Shown here: piece by piece, positions 7,306-40,158 of the stretch
Layout of the letters: the number at the start of each line of letters is the position of its first letter
Numbering within the stretch: position 1 is the stretch's first letter
Origin: a virus
Reading direction: 5' to 3' (one strand)
DNA: 42,154 bases
IMG/VR virus record: IMGVR_UViG_3300045988_021923
The notes under the pieces: generated by a model
The model's input: the letters and a program-made list of their open reading frames with translations, nothing else
The model's database searches: none
What the model was told of the DNA's origin: nothing
Position numbers and translations under genes: made by a program

Positions 7306-7689
7306 ATGATAAACTTTAACAAGAACTCTGTTTGGAACTTAAAACCGATTGATGTTTCTGCCGTTCGTTCAGAAGTTACGGGGCTTCTCGTATCCGGCGA
7401 AGAAATTGTGTGCGCCTTTAAAACCATTCGGGACCAGCTTGTTTTTACAAACAAGCGCATCATTTCCATTGATGTTCAAGGCATTACCGGCACAAAGAAA
7501 TCATTTTCTTCTTTGCCATATTCAAAAGTCCAGTTCTTTGCAATTCAGACCCCCGGCATTATGGAAATGGTCCCTGACGCTGAACTGTTTTTAATGTTTT
7601 CCAGCGGTTTTACGGCAACATTTGAGTTCAAAGGCAACGTTGATATTGCCGAAATCGGAAGGATGATTTCAAATTACGTTCTTGCATAA
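7306..7689 (+). CDS. Bacterial PH-domain (YokE/bPH-like) protein, 127 aa, opposite-strand moron inside the tail operon
   Basis: ATG 7306 with GGAGGG SD 6 nt upstream. The pattern SGEEIVCAFKTIRDQLVFTNKRIISIDVQGITGTKKSFSSLPYSKV matches bacterial PH-domain proteins. The gene has its own terminator. Confidence 0.7.
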   Translation: MINFNKNSVWNLKPIDVSAVRSEVTGLLVSGEEIVCAFKTIRDQLVFTNKRIISIDVQGITGTKKSFSSLPYSKVQFFAIQTPGIMEMVPDAELFLMFSSGFTATFEFKGNVDIAEIGRMISNYVLA

Positions 7690-7694
7690 CTCCG

Positions 7695-7720
7695 CCGCCC
7701 TCATAAGAGGGCGGTTTTTT
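7695..7720 (+). terminator. Rho-independent terminator of the PH-domain gene
   Basis: CCGCCCTC-ATAA-GAGGGCGG followed by TTTTTT. Confidence 0.8.
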
Positions 7721-8264
7721 ATACCCACTTGCTGATAATGTCCTCGTCCTGCGCGGAATACTGCTTCTTAAAATCAATCAAATTGCGGTTCTGCTTGTAA
7801 AATTCTTGCTCCGCTTTATCCAGCTTTTTACCCTTCGCTTTCTTACTGCGAATGCTGACAACCTGAGAAAATGTACATTCCCCGATTTCCTGATACGCTG
7901 AAATAAACGTAAACCAATGCACCTTTTCGGCGCGGACTTCCTTGTTTAGCACCCGGTTAATGGGCGCGACAATCAACGGGAAATCCTGATGCCAGTCCAT
8001 TAGCTTAGGCCCGCGTTTCTCTGCCAGCTGTTCTTCTCCGCAGTTCATGAACTTAACGCACTGCCTTATGGCTTCTTCATAATCGCTCTGCGGCATTTCT
8101 GAAAAGGCCGGGTAAAAAATGTCAAGCATTGCTTCAGCCTTGTCCTGCTCCGTCAAATTCGGGTCAGAAAGGGCCTCAAAGATTGTCAGGATGTCCCGAT
8201 AATCTGAGCGGATTTCGTATTCCGTTCCGTTGACCTCTACAGAGGTCGGCAGGTCGAAAATCAT
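7719..8264 (-). CDS. Gp15-family tail assembly protein (181 aa)
   Basis: MIFDLPTSVEVNGTEYEIRSDYRDILTIFEALSDPNLTEQDKAEAMLDIFYP matches the bacteriophage Gp15 family. It sits immediately upstream of the tape measure region. Confidence 0.75.
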   Translation of the reverse strand: MIFDLPTSVEVNGTEYEIRSDYRDILTIFEALSDPNLTEQDKAEAMLDIFYPAFSEMPQSDYEEAIRQCVKFMNCGEEQLAEKRGPKLMDWHQDFPLIVAPINRVLNKEVRAEKVHWFTFISAYQEIGECTFSQVVSIRSKKAKGKKLDKAEQEFYKQNRNLIDFKKQYSAQDEDIISKWV

Positions 8265-30641: not shown

Positions 30642-30685
30642 AGAAATGCACAACGTTTTTTTCTTCAATTTGTGAGGTTTTGCCA

Positions 30686-31465
30686 ATGGCATTATTTGAA
30701 GCCCAAATTCGCAAATATATAGAAGAAAATTTTAGTGCGCGTGAAAAAGAAATTTTGGCACAAGAACAAAATTTAAAAACCCGGCTTAATAAAAGCCGGG
30801 AGTACAGAATTATGCTGAGAGATTATCAGCAGGAATTGAAAAACCGGGAAAAGAAAATCATTGAAAAAGAAGCAGAATTAAATGAGCGAGAACAAAATCT
30901 TGTGTCCCAAATAAAAGAAAACTTAATCAAGCCTTTATCCGACGAAAAAGGAAAACTTGAACAGCAAATAAAAAAAGCAAAACTTGAATTGTCTGGATAC
31001 CAAAACATGGAATACGAAATTATTGATTGGGTTTCCAGAATGGAAAAGAAAGAAAGCGCGATATTTCAAGAGCTAATTGGCGATGCTCAAAAGTATGACA
31101 ATAATCAAATTTCTATTGACGGTTATGATTTTGAGACATTTGTTGCAAAACTTCTTACCGCCAATCAATTTACAAACGTAGAGGTTACGGCCAAAAGCGG
31201 AGATTACGGGGCCGACGTTCTTGCAAACAAAGACGGAATAAAATATGTCTTTCAATGCAAATATTATTCTAATCAAGTTGGAATTGAAGCTGTCCAGCAA
31301 GTGTATTCTGCAAAAGATTTTTATAACGCTCATGTCGCGATTGTCATTACAAACAGTGTTTTTACAAAAGCAGCTAAAGTATTAGCCAATGAACTAAATG
31401 TTGTTTTGTGGGATTGCGAAAAACTGAACGAGCTAAAAAAGGTTGATGAAAAAAGCGGTGGATAA
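30686..31465 (+). CDS. Coiled-coil protein with C-terminal Mrr_cat-type restriction endonuclease domain (259 aa)
   Basis: ATG 30686 (GTGAGG SD). The N-terminal ~125 aa are heptad-rich (EKEILAQEQNLKTRLNK...). The C-terminus GYDFETFVAKLL...SGDYGADVLANKDGIKYVFQCKYY...IVITNSVFTKAAKVLA matches the Mrr catalytic domain D...(Q/E)xK. Confidence 0.75.
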   Translation: MALFEAQIRKYIEENFSAREKEILAQEQNLKTRLNKSREYRIMLRDYQQELKNREKKIIEKEAELNEREQNLVSQIKENLIKPLSDEKGKLEQQIKKAKLELSGYQNMEYEIIDWVSRMEKKESAIFQELIGDAQKYDNNQISIDGYDFETFVAKLLTANQFTNVEVTAKSGDYGADVLANKDGIKYVFQCKYYSNQVGIEAVQQVYSAKDFYNAHVAIVITNSVFTKAAKVLANELNVVLWDCEKLNELKKVDEKSGG

Positions 31466-32378: not shown

Positions 32379-32813
32379 TTGACTATTCAGGAAATGTGTA
32401 AGGAACGAAAAACTTCTTTGGGGATTACTTCGCAGGAAATAGCAGACCAATCAGGTGTTCCACTATCCACTGTGAACAATTTCTTCGCTCACGCCTCTAA
32501 GTCTCCACCGCTTTATACCGCTGCGCCAATTTGCGCGGTTTTGGGCGTGTCACTGGATGCGTATTTTGGCATTGGAGACCATTTAACCGCAACGGAAGAA
32601 ACCTTGCAGGCGGAAAAGGTCGGTCTGGAAAAGCGCTTATCCAACAAGCGGGAGACGATTGATGTGCAGAATCATACCATCAATGTGATGGAAAAGGGTC
32701 TGCGGATTCGCAACTGCGTGATTTTGGTTATGGGCGTAGCAATCGTCCTGTTGCTGTGCTGGTGCGTATATGTGGATATGCACGCGCTGAATATCGGTTT
32801 TTGGAGGGAATAA
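32379..32813 (+). CDS. XRE-family HTH protein with C-terminal transmembrane anchor (144 aa)
   Basis: TTG 32379 (GGGGAGG SD) or ATG 32394. ITSQEIADQSGVPLSTVNNFF, a coiled segment, then CVILVMGVAIVLLLCWCVYV. The stop overlaps the recombinase start (TAATG). Confidence 0.6.
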   Translation: MTIQEMCKERKTSLGITSQEIADQSGVPLSTVNNFFAHASKSPPLYTAAPICAVLGVSLDAYFGIGDHLTATEETLQAEKVGLEKRLSNKRETIDVQNHTINVMEKGLRIRNCVILVMGVAIVLLLCWCVYVDMHALNIGFWRE

Positions 32814-34117
32814 TGAGAGCTGCGTTATATATCCGCGTGTCCACCGAAGAACAGGCCAAGCAAGGTCTATCCCTCCCGGAACAGAGGGACGCTTTATCAA
32901 AATATGCTGACGCAAACAACATGGAAGTCATCGGCGTATACGAGGATGCCGGTATCAGCGCCCGAAAGCCGTACAAAAAGCGTCCGGCACTATTGCGCTT
33001 ACTTGAAGATTGCAATGCCGGGAAGATTGATGTAATTCTGTTTATCAAACTGGATAGATGGTTCCGCAATGTTTCCGGGTATTATGCAGTGCAAGACCAA
33101 TTAGACAAGTGCGGCGTCAAGTGGCAGGCAACACAAGAGGACTACGAAACGCGCACAGCATCCGGGCGGCTAAAAGTCAACATTATGTTATCTGTGGCGC
33201 AAGACGAAGCTGACCGCACCAGCGAACGAATTAAATTTATCAATGATGGCAAGCGAGCAAAAGGCCAGCCTACTAACGCAAAGGCTCCGCTGGGCCTTGT
33301 GGTAAAAGACCGGCAATATCAAATAGACCCTGATACCGCCGAAGCCGCAAAGGATATGTTTTCCGCATTTATCCGTCTGCGGGGGATTTTGCCCCTAAGA
33401 AAATATATGGCCGCTACGTGGGGAATAAATCGTTCGTATAGCAAATATGTTGGTCTTATCCAAAATCGGTTGTACATCGGAGAAGTATACGGTATTGCCG
33501 ATGCCTGCCCTGCACTAATCAACAAAGACGAATTTACACTCGCAAACGAATTGCTCCAACATCGGAGCCAGCGCGGGGCCAGCGCTTCACCTGACCGCAC
33601 ATATTTGTTTTCTGGCCTGTTGCATTGCCGCGAATGTGGAACCTCGATGCAATCGGAGACCGCGAAGAAAATATATACTTACTACCGCTGCCGAAAGCGT
33701 ATGCTGGATAATTCCGCTTGCCCTCATAATCGCCGTATCCGAGAAGATGTGTTGGAAGAATATTTACTAAGGGAAATCGAACATATCGCTACGGCCTACC
33801 ACGGAAAATACGAAAAAGCAGAAAAAAAGCCTGCCATAGCGGCAGACAAAATTAAACGAAAGATGCAGAAGCTAAAAGAACTTTACCTTGCAGACCTGAT
33901 TGATATTGAGGAATATCGAAAGGATTACGAGGATATGAAACGTAGCCTTGAAATTATGGAAGCGTCTCAGCCGCCTGCATTTGATGTCGGGGCGTTAAAG
34001 TCAGGGCTTGCGGAATATCCACACATGACGAAAGAACAAAAGAAAGGCTTTTGGACACGCACAATCCAGCGCATTGATGCTGATAATGACGGTGCGTTTT
34101 TTGTAACGCCTCGTTAG
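32813..34117 (+). CDS. Large serine recombinase (phage integrase), 434 aa
   Basis: MRAALYIRVSTEEQ...GLSLPEQ resolvase catalytic N-terminus, recombinase domain, and zinc ribbon CRECGTSM...YYRCRKR. Confidence 0.9.
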   Translation: MRAALYIRVSTEEQAKQGLSLPEQRDALSKYADANNMEVIGVYEDAGISARKPYKKRPALLRLLEDCNAGKIDVILFIKLDRWFRNVSGYYAVQDQLDKCGVKWQATQEDYETRTASGRLKVNIMLSVAQDEADRTSERIKFINDGKRAKGQPTNAKAPLGLVVKDRQYQIDPDTAEAAKDMFSAFIRLRGILPLRKYMAATWGINRSYSKYVGLIQNRLYIGEVYGIADACPALINKDEFTLANELLQHRSQRGASASPDRTYLFSGLLHCRECGTSMQSETAKKIYTYYRCRKRMLDNSACPHNRRIREDVLEEYLLREIEHIATAYHGKYEKAEKKPAIAADKIKRKMQKLKELYLADLIDIEEYRKDYEDMKRSLEIMEASQPPAFDVGALKSGLAEYPHMTKEQKKGFWTRTIQRIDADNDGAFFVTPR

Positions 34118-34159
34118 GCATATTTTACGTTGCGGTTAGTCACAGTGAAATATGCCTAA
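34114..34159. promoter_or_regulatory. attP candidate: 12-bp perfect inverted repeat with 22-bp spacer (46 bp)
   Basis: TTAGGCATATTT (34114-34125) and AAATATGCCTAA (34148-34159). It overlaps the recombinase stop codon. Size and outer-arm symmetry resemble serine-integrase attP sites. Confidence 0.4.
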
Positions 34160-34188
34160 AATCCCCCGCCTTTGTAGACGGGGGATTT
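34159..34188. terminator. Bidirectional terminator between the recombinase gene and the convergent accessory operon
   Basis: AAATCCCCCG-10 nt-CGGGGGATTT. On the - strand it is followed by TTTTAGGCATATTT. Confidence 0.65.
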
Positions 34189-34189
34189 C

Positions 34190-34519
34190 TCATATAGCCT
34201 GAAGTTTTCGCATGACATTATCATAGACCTTTCTGTTTACCACTTTCAAGGTGTCCAACAGTTCATCCATGATTTCCCATGCTTTTTCTGGGTCTTTACC
34301 ATCGACAGCTCTCAAAAAGTCACTGTCACCAGAAATACGAACTGCTTCAGGGGCGGGGGATGCTGAATACATGGCTATGGGCGGAGCAGGCCGGTCATCC
34401 TTTTGATTTTGGTGGTCTTGTACGATGTACAGCGCCGCTAACTTCTCATAGTTTGACCAGCTTGTTTCTTCCGTTTTGAGGCGGTTAATCCACAGACCAA
34501 TTTCTTTTTCGTCAACCAT
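34190..34519 (-). CDS. Hypothetical protein (109 aa), last gene of the accessory operon
   Basis: Intact ORF with an ATG start. No motif recognised. Confidence 0.65.
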   Translation of the reverse strand: MVDEKEIGLWINRLKTEETSWSNYEKLAALYIVQDHQNQKDDRPAPPIAMYSASPAPEAVRISGDSDFLRAVDGKDPEKAWEIMDELLDTLKVVNRKVYDNVMRKLQAI

Positions 34520-34534
34520 GGGGATTACACCCCC

Positions 34535-34927
34535 TTATCCCTCCACAGCGTCCATGCAGCGCTGGATAGCTCTACGGAGGGTATCATCATCCGCTTCATC
34601 AAGCATTTCCTGAAGCTGCCGCTTCATATTATCTTTTCCGCTGTCTCTGCTGTAATGACCTCTGACGTAATGCGTACCCCGCCGCGCATAGGAGCTGTCG
34701 CGGCCATAATTGCCCCGCATATCGGCCTCCCAGTTCCCATCACGGGAATAGCGCCGGGAATAACCGCCATCATCTTCCATCATTTCGATTTTGTCGATGT
34801 TCTTGACCGTGCCTACCAGCTTATAGGCGATATCCAAATCGCCCGCGCCAAGCTCACCTTTTCGGGTGATTTCGTCCAGTTCCTTGCAGAGCATATCTCG
34901 CAAATCATACATTGCTTTCATACCCAT
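34535..34927 (-). CDS. Hypothetical protein with Arg/Tyr/Ser/Gly-rich centre (130 aa)
   Basis: AAGGAGG SD 6 nt upstream. MGMKAMYDLRDMLCKELDEI...RQLQEMLDEADDDTLRRAIQRCMDAVEG. From recollection, this family is widespread in Clostridia with unknown function. Confidence 0.65.
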   Translation of the reverse strand: MGMKAMYDLRDMLCKELDEITRKGELGAGDLDIAYKLVGTVKNIDKIEMMEDDGGYSRRYSRDGNWEADMRGNYGRDSSYARRGTHYVRGHYSRDSGKDNMKRQLQEMLDEADDDTLRRAIQRCMDAVEG

Positions 34928-34938
34928 AATGTACCTCC

Positions 34939-35361
34939 TTAGCTTACCCGGTCAACCGTCAGGTTGGAGTTGGCAAAATTGATTGCCTGCGTGCTGGTGT
35001 TTTCCATGGCCACCGTCAGGCAGCAGCCACGGGGGACCTCCACAATGGCACTGACAAAAATGTTAAAATAGTTTTCCACGGCAGCCGGGGTCACGGTGGC
35101 CGTGGCGCTGGTCAGCGGCTCCCCGTTAATAGCCAGCGCGGCGGTAATGGCCTCCACCGTGCCGCCGGTGGGGATAGCAATGTTGCCGCCAAACGTCACC
35201 CGGAAACGGGCCTTGCACTGGTTGGTAAGGCCCCGCAGGGTCACAATGCCCGCGCCCTCACGGTGCACGATGCAGGGCTTGCTGTTGACCGCTGTCTCAG
35301 TCAGCGGCACATTTTGGCCTGCCGCGACCTCAACAATATTGGAGTTAGTATACTCAGCCAT
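34939..35361 (-). CDS. Beta-rich hypothetical protein, possibly BclA-C-terminal/C1q-like fold (140 aa)
   Basis: Sequence style (VPL..., alternating beta-strand pattern, ...AMENTSTQAINFANSNLTV) recalls exosporium BclA C-terminal domains. Weak, unverified. Confidence 0.6.
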   Translation of the reverse strand: MAEYTNSNIVEVAAGQNVPLTETAVNSKPCIVHREGAGIVTLRGLTNQCKARFRVTFGGNIAIPTGGTVEAITAALAINGEPLTSATATVTPAAVENYFNIFVSAIVEVPRGCCLTVAMENTSTQAINFANSNLTVDRVS

Positions 35362-35384
35362 AAAATCAATCCTTTCATGTAACA

Positions 35385-35408
35385 GCGGCGGGGCTACTGC
35401 CCCGCCGC
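35385..35408. promoter_or_regulatory. Intra-operon GC hairpin (10-bp stem, 4-nt loop)
   Basis: GCGGCGGGGC-TACT-GCCCCGCCGC lies between two operon genes. Confidence 0.3.
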
Positions 35409-35477
35409 GTTGTTGTCAGTATCGGCATGGGGCCGATCATCCCGGTCATGCCGCCGGGAAGCTACATTGTGCAGTTG

Positions 35478-36209
35478 TCAGCAGCCGCAGCCACCGCAGC
35501 CGTTGTACGTGCCTGCCGCCCAAGGGTTGCAGGACTGGTACGCCGGGATGGGCGTGGGCCGAAGCTGGGAGATCAGATAGTTGTTCTGGGCGGCCTGAGA
35601 GGCAGCCAGACGCAGCTCCTGATTGGCGCTCTGGAGATCCTGCAGCTTGCTCTGGGTCAGGAAATCGAGGATCGCGCGGCTGTTGCTGTTGGCGTTGTCG
35701 ATGATGTCCCGCGTTGCGGTCTGGATGGTGTTGCGGGTGTCGCAGCCCTGCGTAGCCATGTCATACCGGAGCTGTGCCGTGTCGGCCCGCTGGTTGCAGC
35801 AGCACTCAGCGGCCTGCATCTGCATGGCAGTCAACTGCTGCATGAGAGCCGCCTGCTGGTTGGCGCGGGAAAGCTCTGCCTGCCCGAAGCCGTTTGCCAT
35901 TGCCATGTTGGTGTTGTTGATGAGCTGCGCCTGCTGGTAAAAACCGTTGCACAGGCCGTCGTTCACGCCGTCGATCTTGCGCTCAACATTGGCAAAGTCA
36001 GAGGTCAGCACATAGCCGTCGACCACGCCGGCGCCATTGCCGCCGTTGTTGCCCCAGCCGTTGCCGCCCCAGCCGCAAAAGACAAACAAAAACAGGATAA
36101 TGATCCACCATGCACCGTCACCGCCCCAGCCAAAGCCGTTTCCGCTGCCGGAGGTGTTGGCGGGAGCCACAGGCATGGTCATCGTCGGCATACCGTCAGA
36201 TAGAGACAT
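35478..36209 (-). CDS. Membrane-anchored Gly/Trp-rich, Gln/Asn-rich coiled-coil protein with Cys-rich C-terminus (243 aa)
   Basis: GFGWGGDGAWWIIILFLFVFCGWGGNGWGNNGGNG (one TM helix), central Q/N-rich helices containing ECCCNQ, and a C-terminal GCGGCGC. Confidence 0.65.
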   Translation of the reverse strand: MSLSDGMPTMTMPVAPANTSGSGNGFGWGGDGAWWIIILFLFVFCGWGGNGWGNNGGNGAGVVDGYVLTSDFANVERKIDGVNDGLCNGFYQQAQLINNTNMAMANGFGQAELSRANQQAALMQQLTAMQMQAAECCCNQRADTAQLRYDMATQGCDTRNTIQTATRDIIDNANSNSRAILDFLTQSKLQDLQSANQELRLAASQAAQNNYLISQLRPTPIPAYQSCNPWAAGTYNGCGGCGC

Positions 36210-36239
36210 GATATCTCTCCTTTCAAAATTTTATCAATC

Positions 36240-36257
36240 AAATCGTGGCCACGATTT
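36240..36257. promoter_or_regulatory. 18-bp perfect palindrome AAATCGTGGCCACGATTT between operon genes
   Basis: Direct reading. On the - strand it is followed by a T-rich run. Confidence 0.3.
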
Positions 36258-36260
36258 TGA

Positions 36261-36479
36261 TTACCGCAAAAAGCTCTCAAATTGCTTTGCCATTGCCTGC
36301 AGCTGGTTCAGCTGCTGCTGGCTCATTTTGCCGGATTGCAGCAGCTTTTCCACCTCCGCTTTTGGATCGCCCTGAAACGTGGCGCGGAACTGGTTAAATT
36401 GCTGCATGAGCCGCTGAAATTGGCCCATCGGCCCCGGCATCTGACCGCCGCCCATGGCCTTTAAAAACGGATTAGCCAT
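36261..36479 (-). CDS. Small Gln-rich helical protein (72 aa)
   Basis: The start overlaps the upstream stop by 8 nt. MANPFLKAMGGGQMPGPMGQFQRLMQQFNQF. Confidence 0.6.
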   Translation of the reverse strand: MANPFLKAMGGGQMPGPMGQFQRLMQQFNQFRATFQGDPKAEVEKLLQSGKMSQQQLNQLQAMAKQFESFLR

Positions 36480-36918
36480 CAGCCTCCGCCTCCTTTACTT
36501 TCTTCGCGGGCCTTTCTTTGCCTCGAATTTCGCCCACAATCGCCGCCAGACGGTCAAATTCCTCCCGCGTGACAAAATCCACGGCCTTAGCCTGCGGTGC
36601 GGCAGGCGGCGTCTGAGAGCGCTCTACGAGGTCATAAATTTTAAGGGACGGTTTGCCGCTGGCGTCCGCCTGCTTGAGATACACGGTGGGAGCCGTGCTG
36701 TCCCACAGCGCCACGGCGGCGTTAGGCGCGATCATCCAGTTGCGGGCCTCCTGCTCTCCGGCCACCCACTGGACGCCGCTCTGAGCCACCGGATTTTGCG
36801 GGGCCTGCGGCATCTGGGGCGTCATGGGCTGCATCTGCTGCTGACGCATCTGCATGAGGTTATCCGGCATAGGCGGCGCGTAATAGGGATTTTGCCAGCC
36901 GTAAGGTGTGTATGCCAT
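36472..36918 (-). CDS. Hypothetical protein with Pro/Gln/Met-rich N-terminus (148 aa)
   Basis: ATG 36918 (AAGGAGG 9 nt upstream) is preferred over the track start 36927. Conserved-looking core GVQWVAGEQEARNWMIAPNAAVALWDSTAPTVYLKQADASGKPS. Confidence 0.6.
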   Translation of the reverse strand: MAYTPYGWQNPYYAPPMPDNLMQMRQQQMQPMTPQMPQAPQNPVAQSGVQWVAGEQEARNWMIAPNAAVALWDSTAPTVYLKQADASGKPSLKIYDLVERSQTPPAAPQAKAVDFVTREEFDRLAAIVGEIRGKERPAKKVKEAEADG

Positions 36919-36919
36919 G

Positions 36920-37300
36920 TCAATCATCCTCCTTGACCCAGTAATATAAGATTGTCTCGTTGCTGCTGTCCCAGCTATCCCAGATTACCCCGTCCTGTAC
37001 GCAGACTACGTGGCCGGACAGCGCCAAAATATACGTGCCTACCGGGTGATCGTTCGCAAACTGCCCCACCGTGTAGCAATCCGGGCAGGTGTCCGGCACG
37101 ATATACCGCTTGTACCCGATGCTGTGGAGATACCGCCCCCAGCAGGCATTGGCGGAGGGCATATCACCGTCAAGATACCCTTGGATGCACAATCGCAGAT
37201 ACGTCTCGCCCCAGTCCTTGCCGGTGGCCTTGGAGATAGCTCGCACGGTGCAGTCCCCTACATTTTTCCCACAGGGATTTTGGTTAAAGTACTCAAACAT
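36920..37300 (-). CDS. Putative papain-like cysteine peptidase-fold protein (126 aa)
   Basis: Trimmed to MFEYFNQNPCGKNVGDCTVRAISKATG (candidate catalytic Cys), with a later GHVVCV...DSWDS (candidate His/Asp). Assignment is inferential. Confidence 0.55.
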   Translation of the reverse strand: MFEYFNQNPCGKNVGDCTVRAISKATGKDWGETYLRLCIQGYLDGDMPSANACWGRYLHSIGYKRYIVPDTCPDCYTVGQFANDHPVGTYILALSGHVVCVQDGVIWDSWDSSNETILYYWVKEDD

Positions 37301-37415
37301 GGAACAGCTCCGCAAAATACACGTAGGTCCGCAGCTCCTCCGGGTCCGGGAACAGCCTTAAAATGTCCATTGCCATTTGCTCCGTGTAGCCGATGGCAAG
37401 CAGTCGGTCGTACAT
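37293..37415 (-). CDS. Small leader-position protein (40 aa)
   Basis: Only the last 40 codons of track ORF 37293..37898 are kept. AAGGAGG SD 7 nt before ATG 37415. The stop overlaps the next start by 8 nt. Confidence 0.45.
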   Translation of the reverse strand: MYDRLLAIGYTEQMAMDILRLFPDPEELRTYVYFAELFHV

Positions 37416-37447
37416 CGCGCACCTCCTTGTCTTGCCCTTATGGTAGC

Positions 37448-37474
37448 AAAAAACCGGGCAGCCAAACTGCCCGG
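37448..37474 (-). terminator. - strand hairpin plus U-run immediately upstream of the accessory operon RBS
   Basis: On the - strand: CCGGGCAG-TTTGG-CTGCCCGG followed by TTTTTTG. It ends ~30 nt before ATG 37415. Confidence 0.5.
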
Positions 37475-37505
37475 AAACTGCCTGTATTCTGCCCTCAAAC
37501 TGCCC
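37462..37505. repeat. Four tandem 11-bp repeats nnAAACTGCCC
   Basis: CCAAACTGCCC GGAAACTGCCT GTATTCTGCCC TCAAACTGCCC at exact 11-bp phasing. An inverted GGGCAG copy lies at 37456-37461. Confidence 0.9.
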
Positions 37506-37537
37506 AAAAAATATTTTGACTTTTTTGCTTTTTCTTC

Positions 37538-37566
37538 TTGACTTTACGCTAATATTAGCGTATAAT
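37538..37566 (+). promoter_or_regulatory. Promoter copy 1: TTGACT-17-TATAAT with 16-bp palindromic operator in the spacer
   Basis: The spacer contains ACGCTAATATTAGCGT. The 31-bp core is identical to 39484-39514. Confidence 0.75.
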
Positions 37567-37610
37567 AAGGATGTAAACAAGAGAGGGGAACACCCCGGGA
37601 GGAAATAAAA

Positions 37611-37961
37611 ATGAACTACAACAAGAGTGAGATCATGAAAGCCGCATGGACCCTTTACAGAACGGCTCAGAAGTGGGTCAACAAGCTCAGCTTCGGTGAG
37701 TGCCTCCGCCGCGCATGGGAAAACGCCAAGCGCACCCTTGAAGCCACCAAGAAACTCATGTCCAACGACTGCATGAAGGTCATCAACGGCGTTCGCCTTA
37801 GTCTCCGCCGCACCGTCGTAGCCGACTATGCGATGGGCTGGATCGTGACCGGCAAGACTTACGCCGCCCGCAAGGAGCTCAAGTCCGCAGGCTTTCACTG
37901 GGACCCCGAATCTTCCAACTGGTTTACCACCGACCGTAAAGTCGCCGAGTATTTTTGCTAA
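37611..37961 (+). CDS. Hypothetical protein (116 aa)
   Basis: GGGAGG SD. SEIMKAAWTLYR...SFGECLRRAW and a C-terminal GWIVTGKTYAARKELKSAGFHWD...NWF. Both modules are seen in phage/plasmid proteins of unknown function (recollection). Confidence 0.7.
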   Translation: MNYNKSEIMKAAWTLYRTAQKWVNKLSFGECLRRAWENAKRTLEATKKLMSNDCMKVINGVRLSLRRTVVADYAMGWIVTGKTYAARKELKSAGFHWDPESSNWFTTDRKVAEYFC

Positions 37962-37979
37962 TGAGAGAGGAGATCAAGC

Positions 37980-38435
37980 ATGACAACCTATTACGTTACC
38001 GCAGATCTTGACCGTGCGCCGACGGAGCAAGAGACAAAGGAGATCGGCGTACCGCACGCAAAAATTTTTCTTGGCCGCGTCAAGGCAATTATCTGCGCCG
38101 ACAGTATCAAGGACGCCTGCGCGCGAGGGAGTGAGTGCATTTCCGGCTGTATCAAAGAGGGCAGGACAATCAGCAATGTCGGCTGCATGCCGGTTGCCGC
38201 GGCAAAGGAAATGGGAGACGACGAGATCTACAAGGGCTACCCCACAACGACGTGGCTGCTGTATTACCGGCTTAAAGCCGGGCTGACGCAGGCACAGCTT
38301 TCGAAAGCGTCCGGCGTCAACATCCGCCAGATCCAGCGGGTGGAGCTGGGCGAGGCGGAGGCCGGAAACCTGTCCGCTAAAAATATTATTGCCCTGGCGG
38401 ACGCCTTGGGCGTGGACGTGAGGGCGTTGGTATAA
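37980..38435 (+). CDS. Protein with C-terminal XRE-family HTH domain (151 aa)
   Basis: LLYYRLKAGLTQAQLSKASGVNIRQIQRVELGE...IIALADALGVDVRAL. Confidence 0.7.
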   Translation: MTTYYVTADLDRAPTEQETKEIGVPHAKIFLGRVKAIICADSIKDACARGSECISGCIKEGRTISNVGCMPVAAAKEMGDDEIYKGYPTTTWLLYYRLKAGLTQAQLSKASGVNIRQIQRVELGEAEAGNLSAKNIIALADALGVDVRALV

Positions 38436-39466
38436 TGCGGCTCAAAAAATGTGCTAAATGCGGCAAGCTATTTAACACCGCCAAAAACGAGCAGACGCTG
38501 TGTGACGAGTGCGTTGCTACGGCCAAGTCCACCACCATCCGACCCCGGACCTGCCGCGAGTGCGGTGCTATTTTTGACGGTGGCCCTCGAGCGTGGTACT
38601 GCCCAGAATGCAGGAAGATTCGGGAGAAAGAGTCGGCCAAGCATTACAGGGACAATGGCCCATCACGCCCGCTCGGAAGCATTGACCGCTGTTCCGTCTG
38701 CGGTAAAGAGTATGTTGTCAATTCTGCGCGGCAGCGGTATTGCCCGGCCTGCGCTCCGGAAGCAATCCGGGAGGTTGACCGCGAGGCGTCGAAAAAATGG
38801 AACGCTGAAAATGGTTTTTACGACCGCACGCAATTAGAGCGGAGCGGCCAGAAAATATGCGTGATCTGCGGAAAACCTGTGCCACCCGGAACGCCTCGGG
38901 TAACTTGCTCAGATGAGTGCGACAAGCTCCGGATAAAATATAATCAGGACAAGGCGGAGATCAAGCGGGGCAATCGCAAATCTCCTACCACGGTTGAGCG
39001 GCTGGACAAGGAGCTTCCTCTGGCTCCGGTGGAGCTGACGCCGGAGATCATCAAGGAGTTAGAGGCTGACCTGCTGTCTGTTATTAAGCGCTGCCCGGAT
39101 TGCGGGCAGCTATTTGTCAAAAAAAGCAAAAATGCTCGGTTTTGCCGGGCTTGCGCCCTACAGCGTAGCCTGGAGAGCACCCAAAAGTCGAGTAATGAGC
39201 ATTACTATGCAGACGTGGAGGCGAGCCGGGCCAAGCGCCGGGAGGATTACGCAAAAAACAGAGAGGCCGTCCGAGCCTACCAGGCGGCATATTACGCCGC
39301 CCACAAGGACGAGATAAAGCAGCGCCGCCAGCAAAACCAGCAAAAAAAGGCCGGAGACAAGGAGGCTCTCAAAGCCTATCAGGCCAAGTATTACGCCCAA
39401 AACAAGGAGCGCATCAAGGCCCAGCGCAAGGCCAAAAAGGAGCGGGACGCCGCTGAAAAAAAATAA
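38435..39466 (+). CDS. Multi-zinc-ribbon protein (five CxxC-x(10-14)-CxxC units) with C-terminal YYAxxK(D/E)xIK repeats (343 aa)
   Basis: The start overlaps the upstream stop (TAATG). Five units, for example CAKCG..CDEC, CRECG..CPEC, CSVCG..CPAC, CVICG..CSDEC, CPDCG..CRAC. Basic repeat tail. Confidence 0.7.
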   Translation: MRLKKCAKCGKLFNTAKNEQTLCDECVATAKSTTIRPRTCRECGAIFDGGPRAWYCPECRKIREKESAKHYRDNGPSRPLGSIDRCSVCGKEYVVNSARQRYCPACAPEAIREVDREASKKWNAENGFYDRTQLERSGQKICVICGKPVPPGTPRVTCSDECDKLRIKYNQDKAEIKRGNRKSPTTVERLDKELPLAPVELTPEIIKELEADLLSVIKRCPDCGQLFVKKSKNARFCRACALQRSLESTQKSSNEHYYADVEASRAKRREDYAKNREAVRAYQAAYYAAHKDEIKQRRQQNQQKKAGDKEALKAYQAKYYAQNKERIKAQRKAKKERDAAEKK

Positions 39467-39485
39467 ATTATTTTGCTTTTCTCTC

Positions 39486-39514
39486 TTGACTTTACGCTAA
39501 TATTAGCGTATAAT
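39486..39514 (+). promoter_or_regulatory. Promoter copy 2: TTGACT-17-TATAAT with the same palindromic operator
   Basis: Identical 31-bp core CTTGACTTTACGCTAATATTAGCGTATAAT, with a similar leader and hairpin before the SD. Confidence 0.75.
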
Positions 39515-39555
39515 GAGAGCATAAAGAGAGGGGCACAGCCCGGGAGGTAAAAATC

Positions 39556-39876
39556 ATGACGTACATTAGCAGCCAGCATTACATTGACCCGGAAATCGTT
39601 GAGGCCAAAAAAGCGGAGCTTGTAGACGTGTTTGAGGTTGTTATCCCTTGCACTTACGTTGGCGTTATTGATGGCGTGGAATACGCAATGCAAAACGATA
39701 AGCATCATACTCTGGCAGCCGCCAAAGAGCTTGGCATCCCTGTTGTCTTTGACGTCTCCGATGACGCCGAAGGCCTCGCTGGCGAGGAGCTCCTCGAAGC
39801 CCGTTATAATGACGGAGACTATTACAATGTTGAGACCAGCAATCCCATTGATGAGCAGTTTGACCTGATCTGGTAA
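39556..39876 (+). CDS. Strongly acidic hypothetical protein (106 aa)
   Basis: GGGAGG SD. About a quarter of the residues are Asp/Glu, concentrated in the C-terminal half. Confidence 0.65.
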   Translation: MTYISSQHYIDPEIVEAKKAELVDVFEVVIPCTYVGVIDGVEYAMQNDKHHTLAAAKELGIPVVFDVSDDAEGLAGEELLEARYNDGDYYNVETSNPIDEQFDLIW

Positions 39877-39885
39877 GCCAAATAA

Positions 39886-39922
39886 GCAAGAGGGCGTGTC
39901 CGAATCGGACACGCCCTCTTGC
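39886..39922. terminator. Bidirectional terminator (17-bp perfect stem, 3-nt loop)
   Basis: GCAAGAGGGCGTGTCCG-AAT-CGGACACGCCCTCTTGC lies between convergent genes. Confidence 0.8.
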
Positions 39923-40158
39923 TATCCTTTGATATCGTCCGCGATCTTGGCATAGGCACGCCGCCGGATCTTGGCAAGCCCGTCCACGCTGACGTGGAGC
40001 AGCGCCGCCGCCTGTAGGCAGCTCTGGCCGTGGACGTCCACCGCCAGCACCGCCGTCTCCTCGTCAGGCGGCAAGCCTACCAGCCGGACGGCCTGCGCCG
40101 CCCGGGCCGGGGCCATAGATGACAACAGCGCCCGGATCTCTCGGTTTTGTTTTTCCAT
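39922..40158 (-). CDS. Sigma-70 region-4-like small HTH regulator (78 aa)
   Basis: DEETAVLAVDVHGQSCLQAAALLHVSVDGLAKIRRRAYAKI resembles region 4 of ECF sigma factors / small phage late regulators. Confidence 0.6.
   Translation of the reverse strand: MEKQNREIRALLSSMAPARAAQAVRLVGLPPDEETAVLAVDVHGQSCLQAAALLHVSVDGLAKIRRRAYAKIADDIKG

Follow-up and report, generated by a model that had tools for sequence, protein, structure and literature searches.

Our analysis of a 42,154-nt stretch of viral DNA (IMG/VR record IMGVR_UViG_3300045988_021923; hereafter the window) identifies the gene block at 37415–34190 as a single instance of an accessory cassette, self-contained and horizontally mobile, carried in the late operons of gut and rumen Clostridia phages. 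The cassette comprises a gene for a sigma-70 region 4-like (sigma4-like) protein, optional tiny membrane proteins, g1, an invariant series g2–g3–g4–g5–g6–g7 and, in some loci, g8. Tentatively, and at rather less than even chances, we read it as an accessory late-gene cassette that would build a membrane-associated complex of a stalk and a TNF-like head, acting at the end of the lytic cycle.

Results

Eight co-oriented ORFs (g1–g8), each preceded by a GGAGG-type ribosome-binding site, fill the minus strand from 37415 to 34190 in our ORF calls on the window, as a preliminary description of this DNA had reported. These genes and the elements around them are:

32756–34117, plus strand: serine integrase, convergent with the operon
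~34158–34188: terminator hairpin after g8, usable from both strands, which ends the operon
34190–34519, minus strand: g8, 109 aa, helical
34535–34927, minus strand: g7, 130 aa
34939–35361, minus strand: g6, 140 aa
35385–35408: hairpin in the g5–g6 spacer, with a 10-bp all-GC stem and no good U-run
35478–36209, minus strand: g5, 243 aa
36240–36257: palindrome in the conserved ~55-nt g4–g5 spacer
36261–36479, minus strand: g4, 72 aa, Gln-rich, helical
36472–36918, minus strand: g3, 148 aa
36920–37300, minus strand: g2, 126 aa counted from the ATG
37293–37415, minus strand: g1, 40 aa, conserved small protein
37416–37610, minus strand: divergent leader/control region of g1–g8, overlapping the divergent plus-strand promoter at 37538–37566
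37611–39876, plus strand: 2.3-kb insert splitting the sigma4-like gene from g1–g8
39885–39923: perfect 19-bp inverted repeat between the sigma4-like gene and a convergent 106-aa plus-strand ORF
39922–40158, minus strand: sigma-70 region 4-like HTH protein, 78 aa, directly downstream of the endolysin gene

For g2 we took the ATG as the start and judged the TTG at 37315, given in the ORF list, less likely. The ORFs are coding genes and do not stand open by chance: g2–g7 match PHROG families (E 1e-15 to 5e-59) and their protein sequences are conserved in hundreds of loci. Searches of Pfam, NCBIfam and PADLOC matched no family to any of the eight, in agreement with the earlier statement that none belongs to a known family. 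That most of the genes are translationally coupled is roughly right: the g1 stop overlaps the g2 start and the g3 stop the g4 start, the latter overlap being kept across loci, and the spacings between g2 and g3 (1 nt), g6 and g7 (11 nt) and g7 and g8 (15 nt) are short, but true gaps separate g4 from g5 (51 nt) and g5 from g6 (116 nt). Both gaps are kept across ~300 loci, and the two internal palindromes previously noted do exist within them. The hairpin at 35385–35408 possibly acts as a partial terminator, or else in stabilising or processing the transcript, and the g5–g6 spacer (~110 nt) is unusually structured across loci, with a median of −0.35 kcal/mol per nt. Genes for HNH, C5-methylase and HTH proteins have been inserted at or near the g4–g5 and g5–g6 spacers in some loci, where the block survives. 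Downstream, the attP region is expected between the terminator at 34158–34188 and position 34117, where the integrase gene stops; relatives found integrated have host genes or a tRNA-Ser gene directly after g8 or g7.

The preliminary description had missed both the sigma4-like gene as a cassette member and the plus-strand insert that separates it from g1–g8. The product of this gene matches Pfam Sigma70_r4_2 at E 1.3e-4 and 22 bits, under the 25.7-bit cutoff, and its homologue in locus L090 scores 25.9 bits. A homologous ORF accompanies g2 in 224 of 247 loci (91%), lying no more than 3 kb away on the same strand. The protein is a predicted regulator-like member of the cassette. The inverted repeat at its end is a predicted bidirectional terminator. 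The insert encodes a 116-aa protein with an AcrIIA3-like N-terminus, a 151-aa HTH_3 protein, a 343-aa multi-zinc-ribbon protein and a 106-aa protein, and bears two anti-CRISPR-like promoter cassettes; judged by sequence comparison it lies outside the cassette, because relatives such as L004, L005 and L007 lack it and there the sigma4-like gene is followed by a terminator and then g1. Accessory neighbours of the cassette in the window thus include acr-like cassettes, and also an Mrr-type nuclease gene. The control region contains an 11-nt repeat in 3.9 copies (37463–37505), the last of which supplies the 5′ arm of a hairpin (37474–37454) that, with its U-run, resembles a terminator and stands some 40 nt upstream of the g1 ATG. 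An equivalent hairpin stands upstream of g1 in 49 of the 60 distinct g1-bearing upstream sequences, and in L005, L007 and L044 this terminator comes so close behind the sigma4-like gene that a promoter has no space.

Gene neighbourhoods bear out the view of one conserved, co-occurring block: g2–g7 are syntenic in ~325 phage and prophage loci of Oscillospiraceae, Lachnospiraceae and their relatives, in an order that holds in essentially all of them down to 39–50% g6 identity. Order, overlaps and the two internal spacers persist as the head, tail, lysis and integration genes around them are exchanged; at 40% identity and across host families the cassette retains its order and its flanks turn over completely. 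Our search of the phage collection never found g3–g7 outside the cassette, although reduced versions in which only g3, g5 and g6 are confidently recognised occur in L267, L269, L270 and L260.

The cassette is found in at least four different places in phage genomes. It most often follows the lysis genes, as in the window and in Butyrivibrio phage Ceridwen, where it comes after the holin and endolysin genes. In ~85 loci (L083, most of L086–L165, L259, L261–L263, L265, L266 and L292) it is embedded in the head operon, with the minor head protein gene on one side and the scaffold gene on the other, and in L090 the minor head protein gene runs 4 nt into g2. It follows the major capsid gene in L325 and the integrase gene in L084 and L260. 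In integrated relatives it is the final block, and host DNA (mscL and trk genes, or a tRNA-Ser gene) comes next, which agrees with the prophage-end position proposed earlier. Nearly identical g6 proteins (86–100%) occur beside differing tail, lysis and integrase genes, and more diverged cassettes adjoin head genes (MCP35) in which no similarity to the major capsid protein of the window is detectable. Ceridwen, a lytic isolate for which only lytic growth was observed (PMC7372960), carries the cassette and has no annotated integrase. Blautia phage Montmirail encodes a portal, a minor head protein, a scaffold and a major capsid protein and was not returned by g2, g3, g6 or g7 searches of the phage collection; because this isolate with a related head module lacks the cassette, the cassette is not needed for its virions.

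The papain-like Cys-peptidase fold suggested for g2 (phrog_3754, E 1e-35) is seen both in the alignment, where Cys17, His97 and Asp108 are invariant or nearly so, and in the AF2 model (pLDDT 93.5), which places Cys17 at the N-terminus of helix 17–26. Foldseek returned only weak, insignificant matches for g2 (best E 0.4), several of them papain-like enzymes, and an HMM search gave no significant match; we describe g2 as a minimal papain-like Cys-His-Asp protein and a predicted enzyme. It may also have an independent role, because homologues work without g3–g8 in Bacillus Tsamsa/Kirov-like phages, Geobacillus GBK2 and Lak phages.

The C1q/BclA resemblance proposed for g6 (phrog_20016, E 5e-59) likewise holds up. 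The AF2 model (pLDDT 93) is a predicted TNF/C1q-like jelly roll similar to the BclA C-terminal domain and ExsF/BxpB, and its closest structural matches are exosporium proteins (Foldseek: 9h38, 9h3d, 8d02, 7r1m and 1wck at E 1e-6 to 1e-5, TM 0.66–0.76). Sequence identity to the BclA/ExsF-type matches is only 10–14%, and no Pfam BclA_C match was found. The pair Cys113–Cys114 is invariant, and g6 is the most conserved cassette protein, with 6 clusters at 70% identity against 51–67 for g2–g5 and g7. Such strong conservation of g6, set against its much less conserved neighbours and against differing capsid and tail genes, argues for a partner within the cassette or a conserved target in the host.

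The Gly/Trp-rich hydrophobic N-terminus and Cys motifs noted earlier in g5 (phrog_16490, E 1e-43) are real and conserved in the alignment. An acidic tail of ~30 aa without Lys or Arg precedes a Gly/Trp-flanked hydrophobic core of 11–18 aa, the sole hydrophobic segment among the cassette proteins by hydropathy analysis, which is followed by a long Q/N-rich helical region, an invariant CCC (136–138), a Pro-rich segment and a C-terminal CGC. Because this core is short and, by hydropathy and charge analysis, has no flanking positive charges, membrane insertion and topology of g5 are uncertain. A search for signal peptides in the cassette proteins found none, and the PDB offered only insignificant coiled-coil matches to g5.

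Among the remaining proteins, g3 (phrog_21718) combines a P/Q/Y-rich N-terminus, a beta core with residues conserved in the alignment (W51, G54, A58, K82, D85, G88, P90) and a C-terminal helix; its relatives form 1418 clusters at 50% identity, the 150 listed being all small proteins, and no sequence relative was found in the PDB. The small g4 is phrog_22984 (E 8e-20). Helical ends enclose a low-complexity middle rich in R/Y/S/G/D in g7 (phrog_28802, E 3e-15), which occurs only in cassette-bearing phages in the phage-collection search. Homologues of g1 are present in ~70 loci, with longer versions in Ceridwen and Dulem virus 33. The PHROG match of g8 is insignificant (E 0.054), and with the profile built here g8, an accessory member, is present in 116 of the first 245 loci.

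Discussion

One of the closest known systems is the tip fibrilla of the Bacillus exosporium nap and of endospore appendages (BclA or F-BclA on ExsFA/BxpB), whose BclA/F-BclA C-terminal domains and stand-alone adaptor ExsF/BxpB share the g6 jelly roll. There, a TNF-like trimer is linked to a fibrous stalk, proteolysis trims the leader, and Pro-rich exosporium leader peptides dock in inter-subunit clefts of the ExsF trimer (PMC12357932). The cassette offers possible analogues in its putative stalk (g5), the Pro-rich C-terminus of that protein, the TNF-like protein (g6) and the putative peptidase (g2). In contrast to the exosporium system, and besides the low g6 identity, it has no collagen repeats and no exosporium leader motif, encodes stalk and head in separate genes, and is borne by phages in late operons.

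Other known systems match in part. Like phage morons and lysogenic-conversion cassettes, the block is accessory, mobile, terminator-flanked and dispensable for virion formation, and in the window it occupies the classical moron position between lysis genes and attachment site. Classical morons, however, are one or two lysogen-expressed genes with their own promoter, whereas the cassette has 7 to 10 genes in fixed order with a regulator-like gene, is usually preceded by a terminator, and also occurs in head operons and a lytic phage. As a regulatory analogy only, a small DNA-binding regulator gene followed by a terminator immediately ahead of the next genes recalls lambda Q/PR′/tR′; the sigma4-like protein has no sequence relationship to Q, its DNA binding is putative, and the 11-nt repeats have no lambda counterpart. 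With i-spanins of the lambda Rz type, g5 shares a gross layout of N-terminal hydrophobic anchor, long coiled coil and conserved cysteines, and it likewise adjoins holin and endolysin genes in most loci, but the monoderm hosts have no outer membrane to fuse, the cassette lacks an o-spanin-like lipoprotein, and g5 has neither sequence similarity to i-spanins nor a positive-inside signal at its anchor. Finally, g2 resembles clan CA (papain-like) cysteine peptidases, deubiquitinases and amidases in having the predicted nucleophile Cys at a helix N-terminus, followed by His and Asp on consecutive strands, all conserved, and its weak structural neighbours include Josephin-2, TssM, AvrPphB, PLpro and Tae4, although it is far smaller.

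Placement within head operons, with the coupling to a minor head gene in L090, raises the alternative that g5 and g6 form a virion appendage, a stalk and TNF-like head serving as head, neck or tail fibres, or that g5 is a pilot protein, ejected and inserting into the membrane by its N-terminus; particles would acquire such parts late in assembly, and g2 would be the maturation protease. Phage fibres and spikes can indeed end in TNF-like domains, as in the central spike knob of phi812 (9eul), the short tail fibre of A-1(L) (8ke9) and a BFVD protein of fibritin type, and the long helical stalk resembles fibritin. We nevertheless consider the appendage and its pilot-protein variant, taken together, unlikely: no attachment partner co-varies, nearly identical g6 occurring beside different tail, lysis and integrase genes and more diverged cassettes beside head genes dissimilar to those of the window; a receptor-binding tip should be the most variable part, yet g6 is the most conserved; Montmirail does without the cassette; the cassette brings a regulator-like gene of its own and is preceded by a terminator; and no cassette family matched a virion-protein PHROG or Pfam entry. 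The genes might instead be no system at all, but a frozen string of independent small late genes held by descent and translational coupling, with g2, for example, a stand-alone host-takeover or anti-defence protease. This would fit the solitary g2 homologues among small early or accessory genes of GBK2, Kirov/Tsamsa-like and Lak phages, the reduced versions, and the selfish genes that insert without destroying the block, but it seems quite improbable for a block that keeps its order while its flanks are replaced, moves as a unit, and contains genes confined to it in the phage collection.

The preliminary description drew from the prophage-end position that the block is prophage-expressed lysogenic-conversion or defence cargo modifying the lysogen envelope or spore surface. 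Its conserved unit and folds were upheld; this interpretation largely was not, and we give it little credence. The end position in integrated relatives, the control region and terminator with acr-like and nuclease neighbours in the window, and the exosporium matches of g6 speak for it, but the same cassette lies in head operons and in Ceridwen, usually behind an intrinsic terminator and not a free-standing promoter, for which several loci leave no room, no PADLOC defence family matched, and no cassette protein has a signal peptide. The spore-surface part has fold resemblance as its one basis, and Butyrivibrio fibrisolvens, the Ceridwen host and the one cultured host, is not known to sporulate.

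We return to a late stalk and TNF-head complex as our best, still tentative, reading. The cassette would be expressed late in the lytic cycle, either by polymerases reading through the terminator in front of g1 or through activation by its own sigma4-like protein; timing in the window could differ, because there the cassette is detached from the late operon and adjoins a strong divergent promoter region. A place beside the attachment site, it should be said against this reading, is also typical of lysogen-expressed genes. In this picture g5 would be an elongated helical stalk, which its short hydrophobic segment with Gly/Trp flanks would hold at the cytoplasmic membrane. From the binding of g5 to g6 onward, each step is drawn by analogy: the Pro-rich, Cys-ended C-terminus of g5 would dock on a g6 trimer as leader peptides do on ExsF, the invariant Cys clusters (CCC and CGC of g5, CC of g6) could lock the complex by metal or thiol chemistry, and g2 would act on a Gln-rich partner (g3, g4 or g5) by trimming or cross-linking it. 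Once complete, the assembly would act not in the lysogen but on the envelope of the dying cell at or after lysis, in egress, lysis control or progeny protection.

Results

Gene content and conservation

The preliminary description had claimed eight co-oriented genes with two internal palindromes and no known phage function, and these claims hold. All eight (g1–g8, from 37415 down to 34190) lie on the minus strand, each with a good ribosome-binding site; g1/g2 and g3/g4 overlap, g2/g3, g6/g7 and g7/g8 are separated by 1, 11 and 15 nt, and the two longer spacers in the window, g4–g5 (51 nt) and g5–g6 (116 nt), contain one palindrome each, with a hairpin terminator 3′ of g8. The PHROG families matched by g2–g7 (E 1e-15 to 5e-59) are all of unknown function, and scans of all eight proteins against Pfam, NCBIfam and PADLOC gave nothing usable and no family for any of them, the only PADLOC hit for a cassette component being an insignificant one to g4 (E 0.025). 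PDB sequence-profile searches with g2, g3, g5 and g6 gave insignificant matches at best, literature searches for BclA-like or TNF-like prophage proteins returned nothing on the cassette, and its genes in Butyrivibrio phage Ceridwen are given as hypothetical (PMC7372960).

Searches seeded with g6 from the window, from Ceridwen and from the cassette-bearing phage record Dulem virus 35 yielded 240 viral contigs, to which a scan of one genome per species added 80 loci. When profiles were run against every ORF in the first 245 loci (the 240 contigs plus five phage records), g2, g3, g4, g5 and g7 each adjoin g6 in 217–243 loci, those missing one being mostly cut-short contigs, while g8 occurs in 116 and g1 in 71; the 80 genome loci keep the gene order of the viral contigs. 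Neighbourhood conservation, proposed earlier as a check on the operon, is therefore evident in both sets, where the genes co-occur as one ordered unit. The g2–g3–g4–g5–g6–g7 order holds down to 39–50% g6 identity, the g3/g4 overlap recurs throughout, and so do a g4–g5 spacer of ~55 nt and a highly structured g5–g6 spacer of ~110 nt. The most conserved member is g6, with 6 clusters at 70% identity against 51–67 for g2–g5 and g7, and in searches of the phage collection g3 and g7 were found solely in cassette-bearing phages. Going by record titles, the hosts belong to Oscillospiraceae (the closest relatives), Lachnospiraceae, Acutalibacteraceae, and Ruminococcus and relatives.

Some loci also carry selfish or accessory genes inside the cassette, encoding an HNH endonuclease, a C-5 cytosine methylase (Pfam E 3e-58) or a 264-aa HTH_17 protein. 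The g4–g5 and g5–g6 spacers hold most of the inserted genes and appear to be insertion hot spots; Ceridwen's lies between g6 and g7.

Insertions within the cassette, by locus
L002, 6410-6961 (-)
L259, 8825-9940
L001, 8518-9312
L012, between g4 and g5

L269, a Lachnospira intestinalis contig, has a reduced cassette in which g3, g5 and g6 are accompanied by g4-like and g7-like genes. Beside it, a 162-aa ORF (7427-7915, -) resembles the C-terminal part of a sporulation-type sigma factor, raising the possibility that, in the manner of skin elements, the prophage splits a sigma factor gene.

The sigma4-like gene and the control region

Immediately 3′ of the endolysin gene, and preceding g1–g8, lies a 78-aa ORF with a putative sigma-70 region 4-type helix-turn-helix. 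The window protein scores 22.0 bits against the region-4 model (cutoff 25.7, E 1.3e-4); its homologue in L090 just passes that cutoff at 25.9 bits, and the one in L083 matches both Sigma70_r4 and GerE under their cutoffs. Of 247 loci, 224 have a small homologous ORF on the cassette strand within 3 kb of g2; in 146 of them it lies upstream of g1/g2, in 78 between g2 and g3.

Control-region features in the window
40158-39922 (-): sigma4-like gene, 78 aa
37611-39876 (+): insert of 2.3 kb between the sigma4-like gene and g1
39486-39514 (+): strong promoter, TTGACT-N17-TATAAT, second copy
37538-37566 (+): strong promoter, TTGACT-N17-TATAAT, first copy
37463-37505: 11-nt repeat, 3.9 copies, leading into the pre-g1 hairpin
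37474-37454 (-): pre-g1 hairpin

A perfect 19-bp bidirectional terminator follows the sigma4-like gene in the window. In relatives that lack the insert, the order is sigma4-like gene, intrinsic terminator, g1, with sometimes only ~30 nt between the latter two. Of 60 distinct upstream sequences, 49 have a terminator-like hairpin ahead of g1. We infer that transcription of g1–g8 depends on terminator read-through or on the sigma4-like protein. The 30 nt from the leader hairpin to the g1 start (37416-37445) are conserved (a T-run, TAC, GCAAGA, GGAGGTG), and in three loci (L030, L035, L062) they are kept even where the hairpin sequence differs; this pattern points to an additional signal, which could act in the RNA or as the -10 element of a promoter.

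The sigma4-like gene is accompanied, within the cassette or a short way upstream of it, by small membrane proteins that combine a coiled coil with a single transmembrane segment in an XhlA- or BhlA-like layout (L083 5236-5968; L090 5786-6175; L001 5463-5657). One family of these, p150_35, also stands directly before endolysin genes in many loci, a position suggestive of an old connection between lysis modules and the cassette.

Both strong promoters carry the palindrome TACGCTAATATTAGCGTA between the hexamers and have similar ribosome-binding regions. The first drives a 116-aa ORF, then a 151-aa HTH_3 protein and a 343-aa multi-zinc-ribbon protein; the second drives a 106-aa ORF. In the 116-aa product, the N-terminal half gave an under-cutoff match to NCBIfam AcrIIA3 (E 7e-8). 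In its layout the segment 37508-39876 (+) looks like a set of anti-CRISPR (acr) genes with an HTH repressor (aca) on a shared operator. A 173-aa minus-strand ORF (39391-39912) was discarded as a gene, being a read-through of the duplicated promoter region and antisense to the better-supported 106-aa ORF.

Predicted protein structures

The AlphaFold2 model of g6 (pLDDT 93) is all-beta and is predicted to form a ten-strand TNF-like jelly roll. The C1q/BclA-type fold previously suggested for this protein was recovered by Foldseek against the PDB with probability 1.0 and TM 0.66-0.76 (9h38, 1wck, 8d02, 7r1m): the best neighbours are the C-terminal domains of F-BclA and BclA, together with the exosporium adaptor ExsF/BxpB, a stand-alone protein, followed by TNF ligands and phage fibre or spike knobs. 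In sequence space g6 had no Pfam (including PF18573) or NCBIfam match at E<1, its PDB profile search found nothing, and a Foldseek search of BFVD returned only uncharacterised gut-phage proteins and generic collagen/C1q fibres. Among the positions that never vary are His33, Arg52, Glu81 and the Cys113-Cys114 pair.

For g2, the papain-like fold proposed earlier stands in its residue arrangement, while a significant match to a characterised member was not found. In the model (pLDDT 93.5) Cys17 begins helix 17-26, His97 lies just before strand 98-102 and Asp108 closes the adjacent strand 105-108; across 121 sequences Cys17 and Asp108 never change, and His97 is conserved to at least 90%. The protein is a predicted enzyme with the clan CA papain-like Cys-His-Asp architecture. 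Neither Pfam nor PDB sequence searches gave a match, and Foldseek against the PDB gave no significant one (best E 0.4; best TM 0.45, to Josephin-2), several of the weak matches being papain-like enzymes.

In g5 an acidic N-terminal tail lacking Lys and Arg leads into a short hydrophobic core with Gly and Trp on its flanks; the long helical region after it is Q/N-rich and contains an invariant CCC motif, and a Pro-rich C-terminal segment ends in CGC. The hydrophobic segment of g5 is the only one among the cassette proteins, none of which has a signal peptide. The g3 protein combines a P/Q/Y-rich N-terminus with a conserved beta core. A single-sequence search with this core gave 1418 clusters at 50% identity, and among the matches listed (150 of the 1418 clusters) all were small and of similar size, with no informative domain fusions.

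Position in phage genomes

At 42,154 bases, the window is the genome of a temperate siphophage, assembled as a circle, whose ends share a 26-nt overlap within a 30-nt tandem repeat, the assembly having been opened inside the repeat. Tail genes follow the capsid gene and continue across the circle junction to a 114-aa ORF (-); the repeat lies between the last tail gene and this ORF, which precedes the holin gene.

Landmarks of the window genome
42059-42154 and 1-56: 30-nt tandem repeat TTTCAACTGTTCGGTTGATTATTCAACCGG; the right end has 3.2 copies, and the repeat runs on into the left end
41693-41244 (-): holin
41247-40228 (-): NAGPA plus M15 endolysin
32756-34117 (+): large serine recombinase (integrase)
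30680-31465 (+): Mrr_cat restriction-endonuclease domain (E 3e-28)
30202-29537 (-): Rha-type regulator; replication genes come next
19062-17821 (-): large terminase
17824-16394 (-): SPP1-type portal
14285-13062 (-): minor head protein
12217-11003 (-): major capsid protein

The lysogeny block on the plus strand comprises the Mrr-like nuclease gene, an HTH repressor candidate and the large serine recombinase. The nuclease gene comes first, followed by a 155-aa ORF, the repressor candidate and the integrase, and may be prophage-encoded defence cargo.

In phages of the window type and the Ceridwen type the cassette lies 3′ of the lysis genes. In integrated copies with this arrangement it is the final block before host DNA, which begins with a tRNA-Ser gene in L276 and L250 and with mscL and trk genes in L273; the prophage-end geometry of the preliminary description is therefore correct. 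A different position, between the minor head gene (SPP1-gp7-like) and the scaffold gene, is found in Dulem virus 35, ~75 related viral contigs and seven genome loci, and the head-operon loci include one complete Lachnospiraceae chromosome; in L090 the g2 start and the minor head gene stop overlap by 4 nt. The cassette follows the major capsid gene in L325 and the integrase gene in Dulem virus 39 and L260. Ceridwen, which has no annotated integrase, was isolated and observed as a lytic phage only (PMC7372960). The Blautia phage Montmirail shares the head gene order of Dulem virus 35, with a 57% identical minor head protein, and has the scaffold gene directly after it and no cassette; it was not among the returns of any cassette search.

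Late regions of head-module-type phages also carry tRNA genes or tRNA-like sequence (L090 9445-9651; L328 1347-1419 and 2510-2582), and tRNA-Asn and tRNA-Ile genes are annotated in Montmirail. Between g7 and the scaffold gene, L090 has an ORF whose translation seemingly runs across a tRNA gene.

Discussion

Combining gene-neighbourhood surveys with structure prediction, our work here shows the cassette to be a conserved, mobile, accessory late-operon unit with a regulator-like gene, a preceding terminator, and proteins predicted to be TNF-like and papain-like. With BclA/ExsF and the clan CA peptidases it has folds alone in common, sequence and architecture being different. In contrast to a BclA-type exosporium fibre, g5 and g6 lack collagen-like GXY repeats, and there is neither an N-terminal exosporium leader nor a TIGR03720-type match in NCBIfam. 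Several more specific ideas were dropped. A double-glycine bacteriocin precursor, which a C39-like g2 would cut, does not fit g5, whose N-terminus has no leader consensus and whose "mature" portion would be more than 200 aa long. Spore-coat cross-linking of the GerQ/Tgl type was set aside as there was no Spore_GerQ or Tgl match, and a spanin as a lipoprotein partner is absent and the hosts are monoderm. An embedded small virus or satellite was rejected too, the cassette having no gene for replication, packaging or integration. We rate the cassette as lying outside the known kinds, and call it new in kind because two generic folds are all that it shares with known systems; the novelty claimed is one of kind and not a demonstrated novelty of mechanism.

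What, then, might the cassette do? In the exosporium, Pro-rich leader peptides dock in the clefts of ExsF trimers and are trimmed (PMC12357932). By analogy, we tentatively favour, at rather less than an even chance, a membrane-held stalk with a TNF-like head that acts on the envelope of the dying cell. Here g5 would be the helical stalk held at the membrane, its Pro-rich, Cys-ended tail would bind a g6 trimer, the Cys clusters would lock the g5–g6 complex, g2 would process or cross-link a Gln-rich partner, and the finished complex would then act on the envelope. A bolder idea, which we think distinctly unlikely, is a previously unrecognised late function of phages, in which a self-assembling, cysteine-locked stalk and TNF-like head would serve as a sigma4-regulated module after virion assembly: a split BclA/ExsF-like fibre would be built in the dying host under its own sigma4-type regulator, would serve, for instance, to cover, tether or shield progeny or to reshape the envelope so that they can leave, and would move as a plug-in between unrelated phages.

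The varied positions of the cassette, its presence in lytic Ceridwen and its absence from Montmirail argue both against a lysogen-specific role and against an essential virion function. An accessory appendage of the virion, to which fibre or spike knobs among the structural neighbours of g6 could be compared, is unlikely rather than implausible; unlike a virion structural module, the cassette shows no homology to virion proteins in Pfam or PHROG searches and is not required in all phages that share the morphogenetic module, as Montmirail illustrates. That the members are simply independent genes seems very unlikely to us given their order across loci, even though g2 homologues also stand alone in Bacillus Tsamsa/Kirov-like phages, Geobacillus GBK2 and Lak megaphages. 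Least probable among the favoured reading and its three rivals is lysogenic conversion or defence, the role originally proposed for the block: its place at the prophage end is as described, but the terminator before g1 argues against expression from a repressed prophage, no component matches a known or candidate PADLOC defence model, and, in contrast to a lysogenic-conversion moron, the cassette is neither restricted to temperate phages, as Ceridwen shows, nor kept out of late operons, given its copies in head operons, so the moron claim is largely not supported. The probability left over from the favoured reading and these three rivals goes to functions that we have not thought of.

Each of two g6 or g6-profile searches and one g2-profile search returned at least 8000 scored candidates, nearly all at E<=0.001; together with the 1418 g3 clusters, this places the cassette among the commoner gene sets of Oscillospiraceae and Lachnospiraceae phages. 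These families are dominant commensals of the human and ruminant gut, yet despite this abundance no cassette member has been named or assigned a function. The cassette is also unlike the usual categories in being moron-like, that is accessory and mobile, yet found in late operons and in a lytic phage, in having its own regulator-like gene, and in joining a TNF-like protein, Cys-cluster proteins and a minimal papain-like enzyme, as predicted from the models. Its abundance is one reason for following it up, and a cultured phage–host pair is another, since Ceridwen and B. fibrisolvens DSM 3071 make the cassette directly testable. Its function, once found, would annotate thousands of "hypothetical" genes of the gut virome, and could uncover a new terminal step of lytic growth in Gram-positive hosts.
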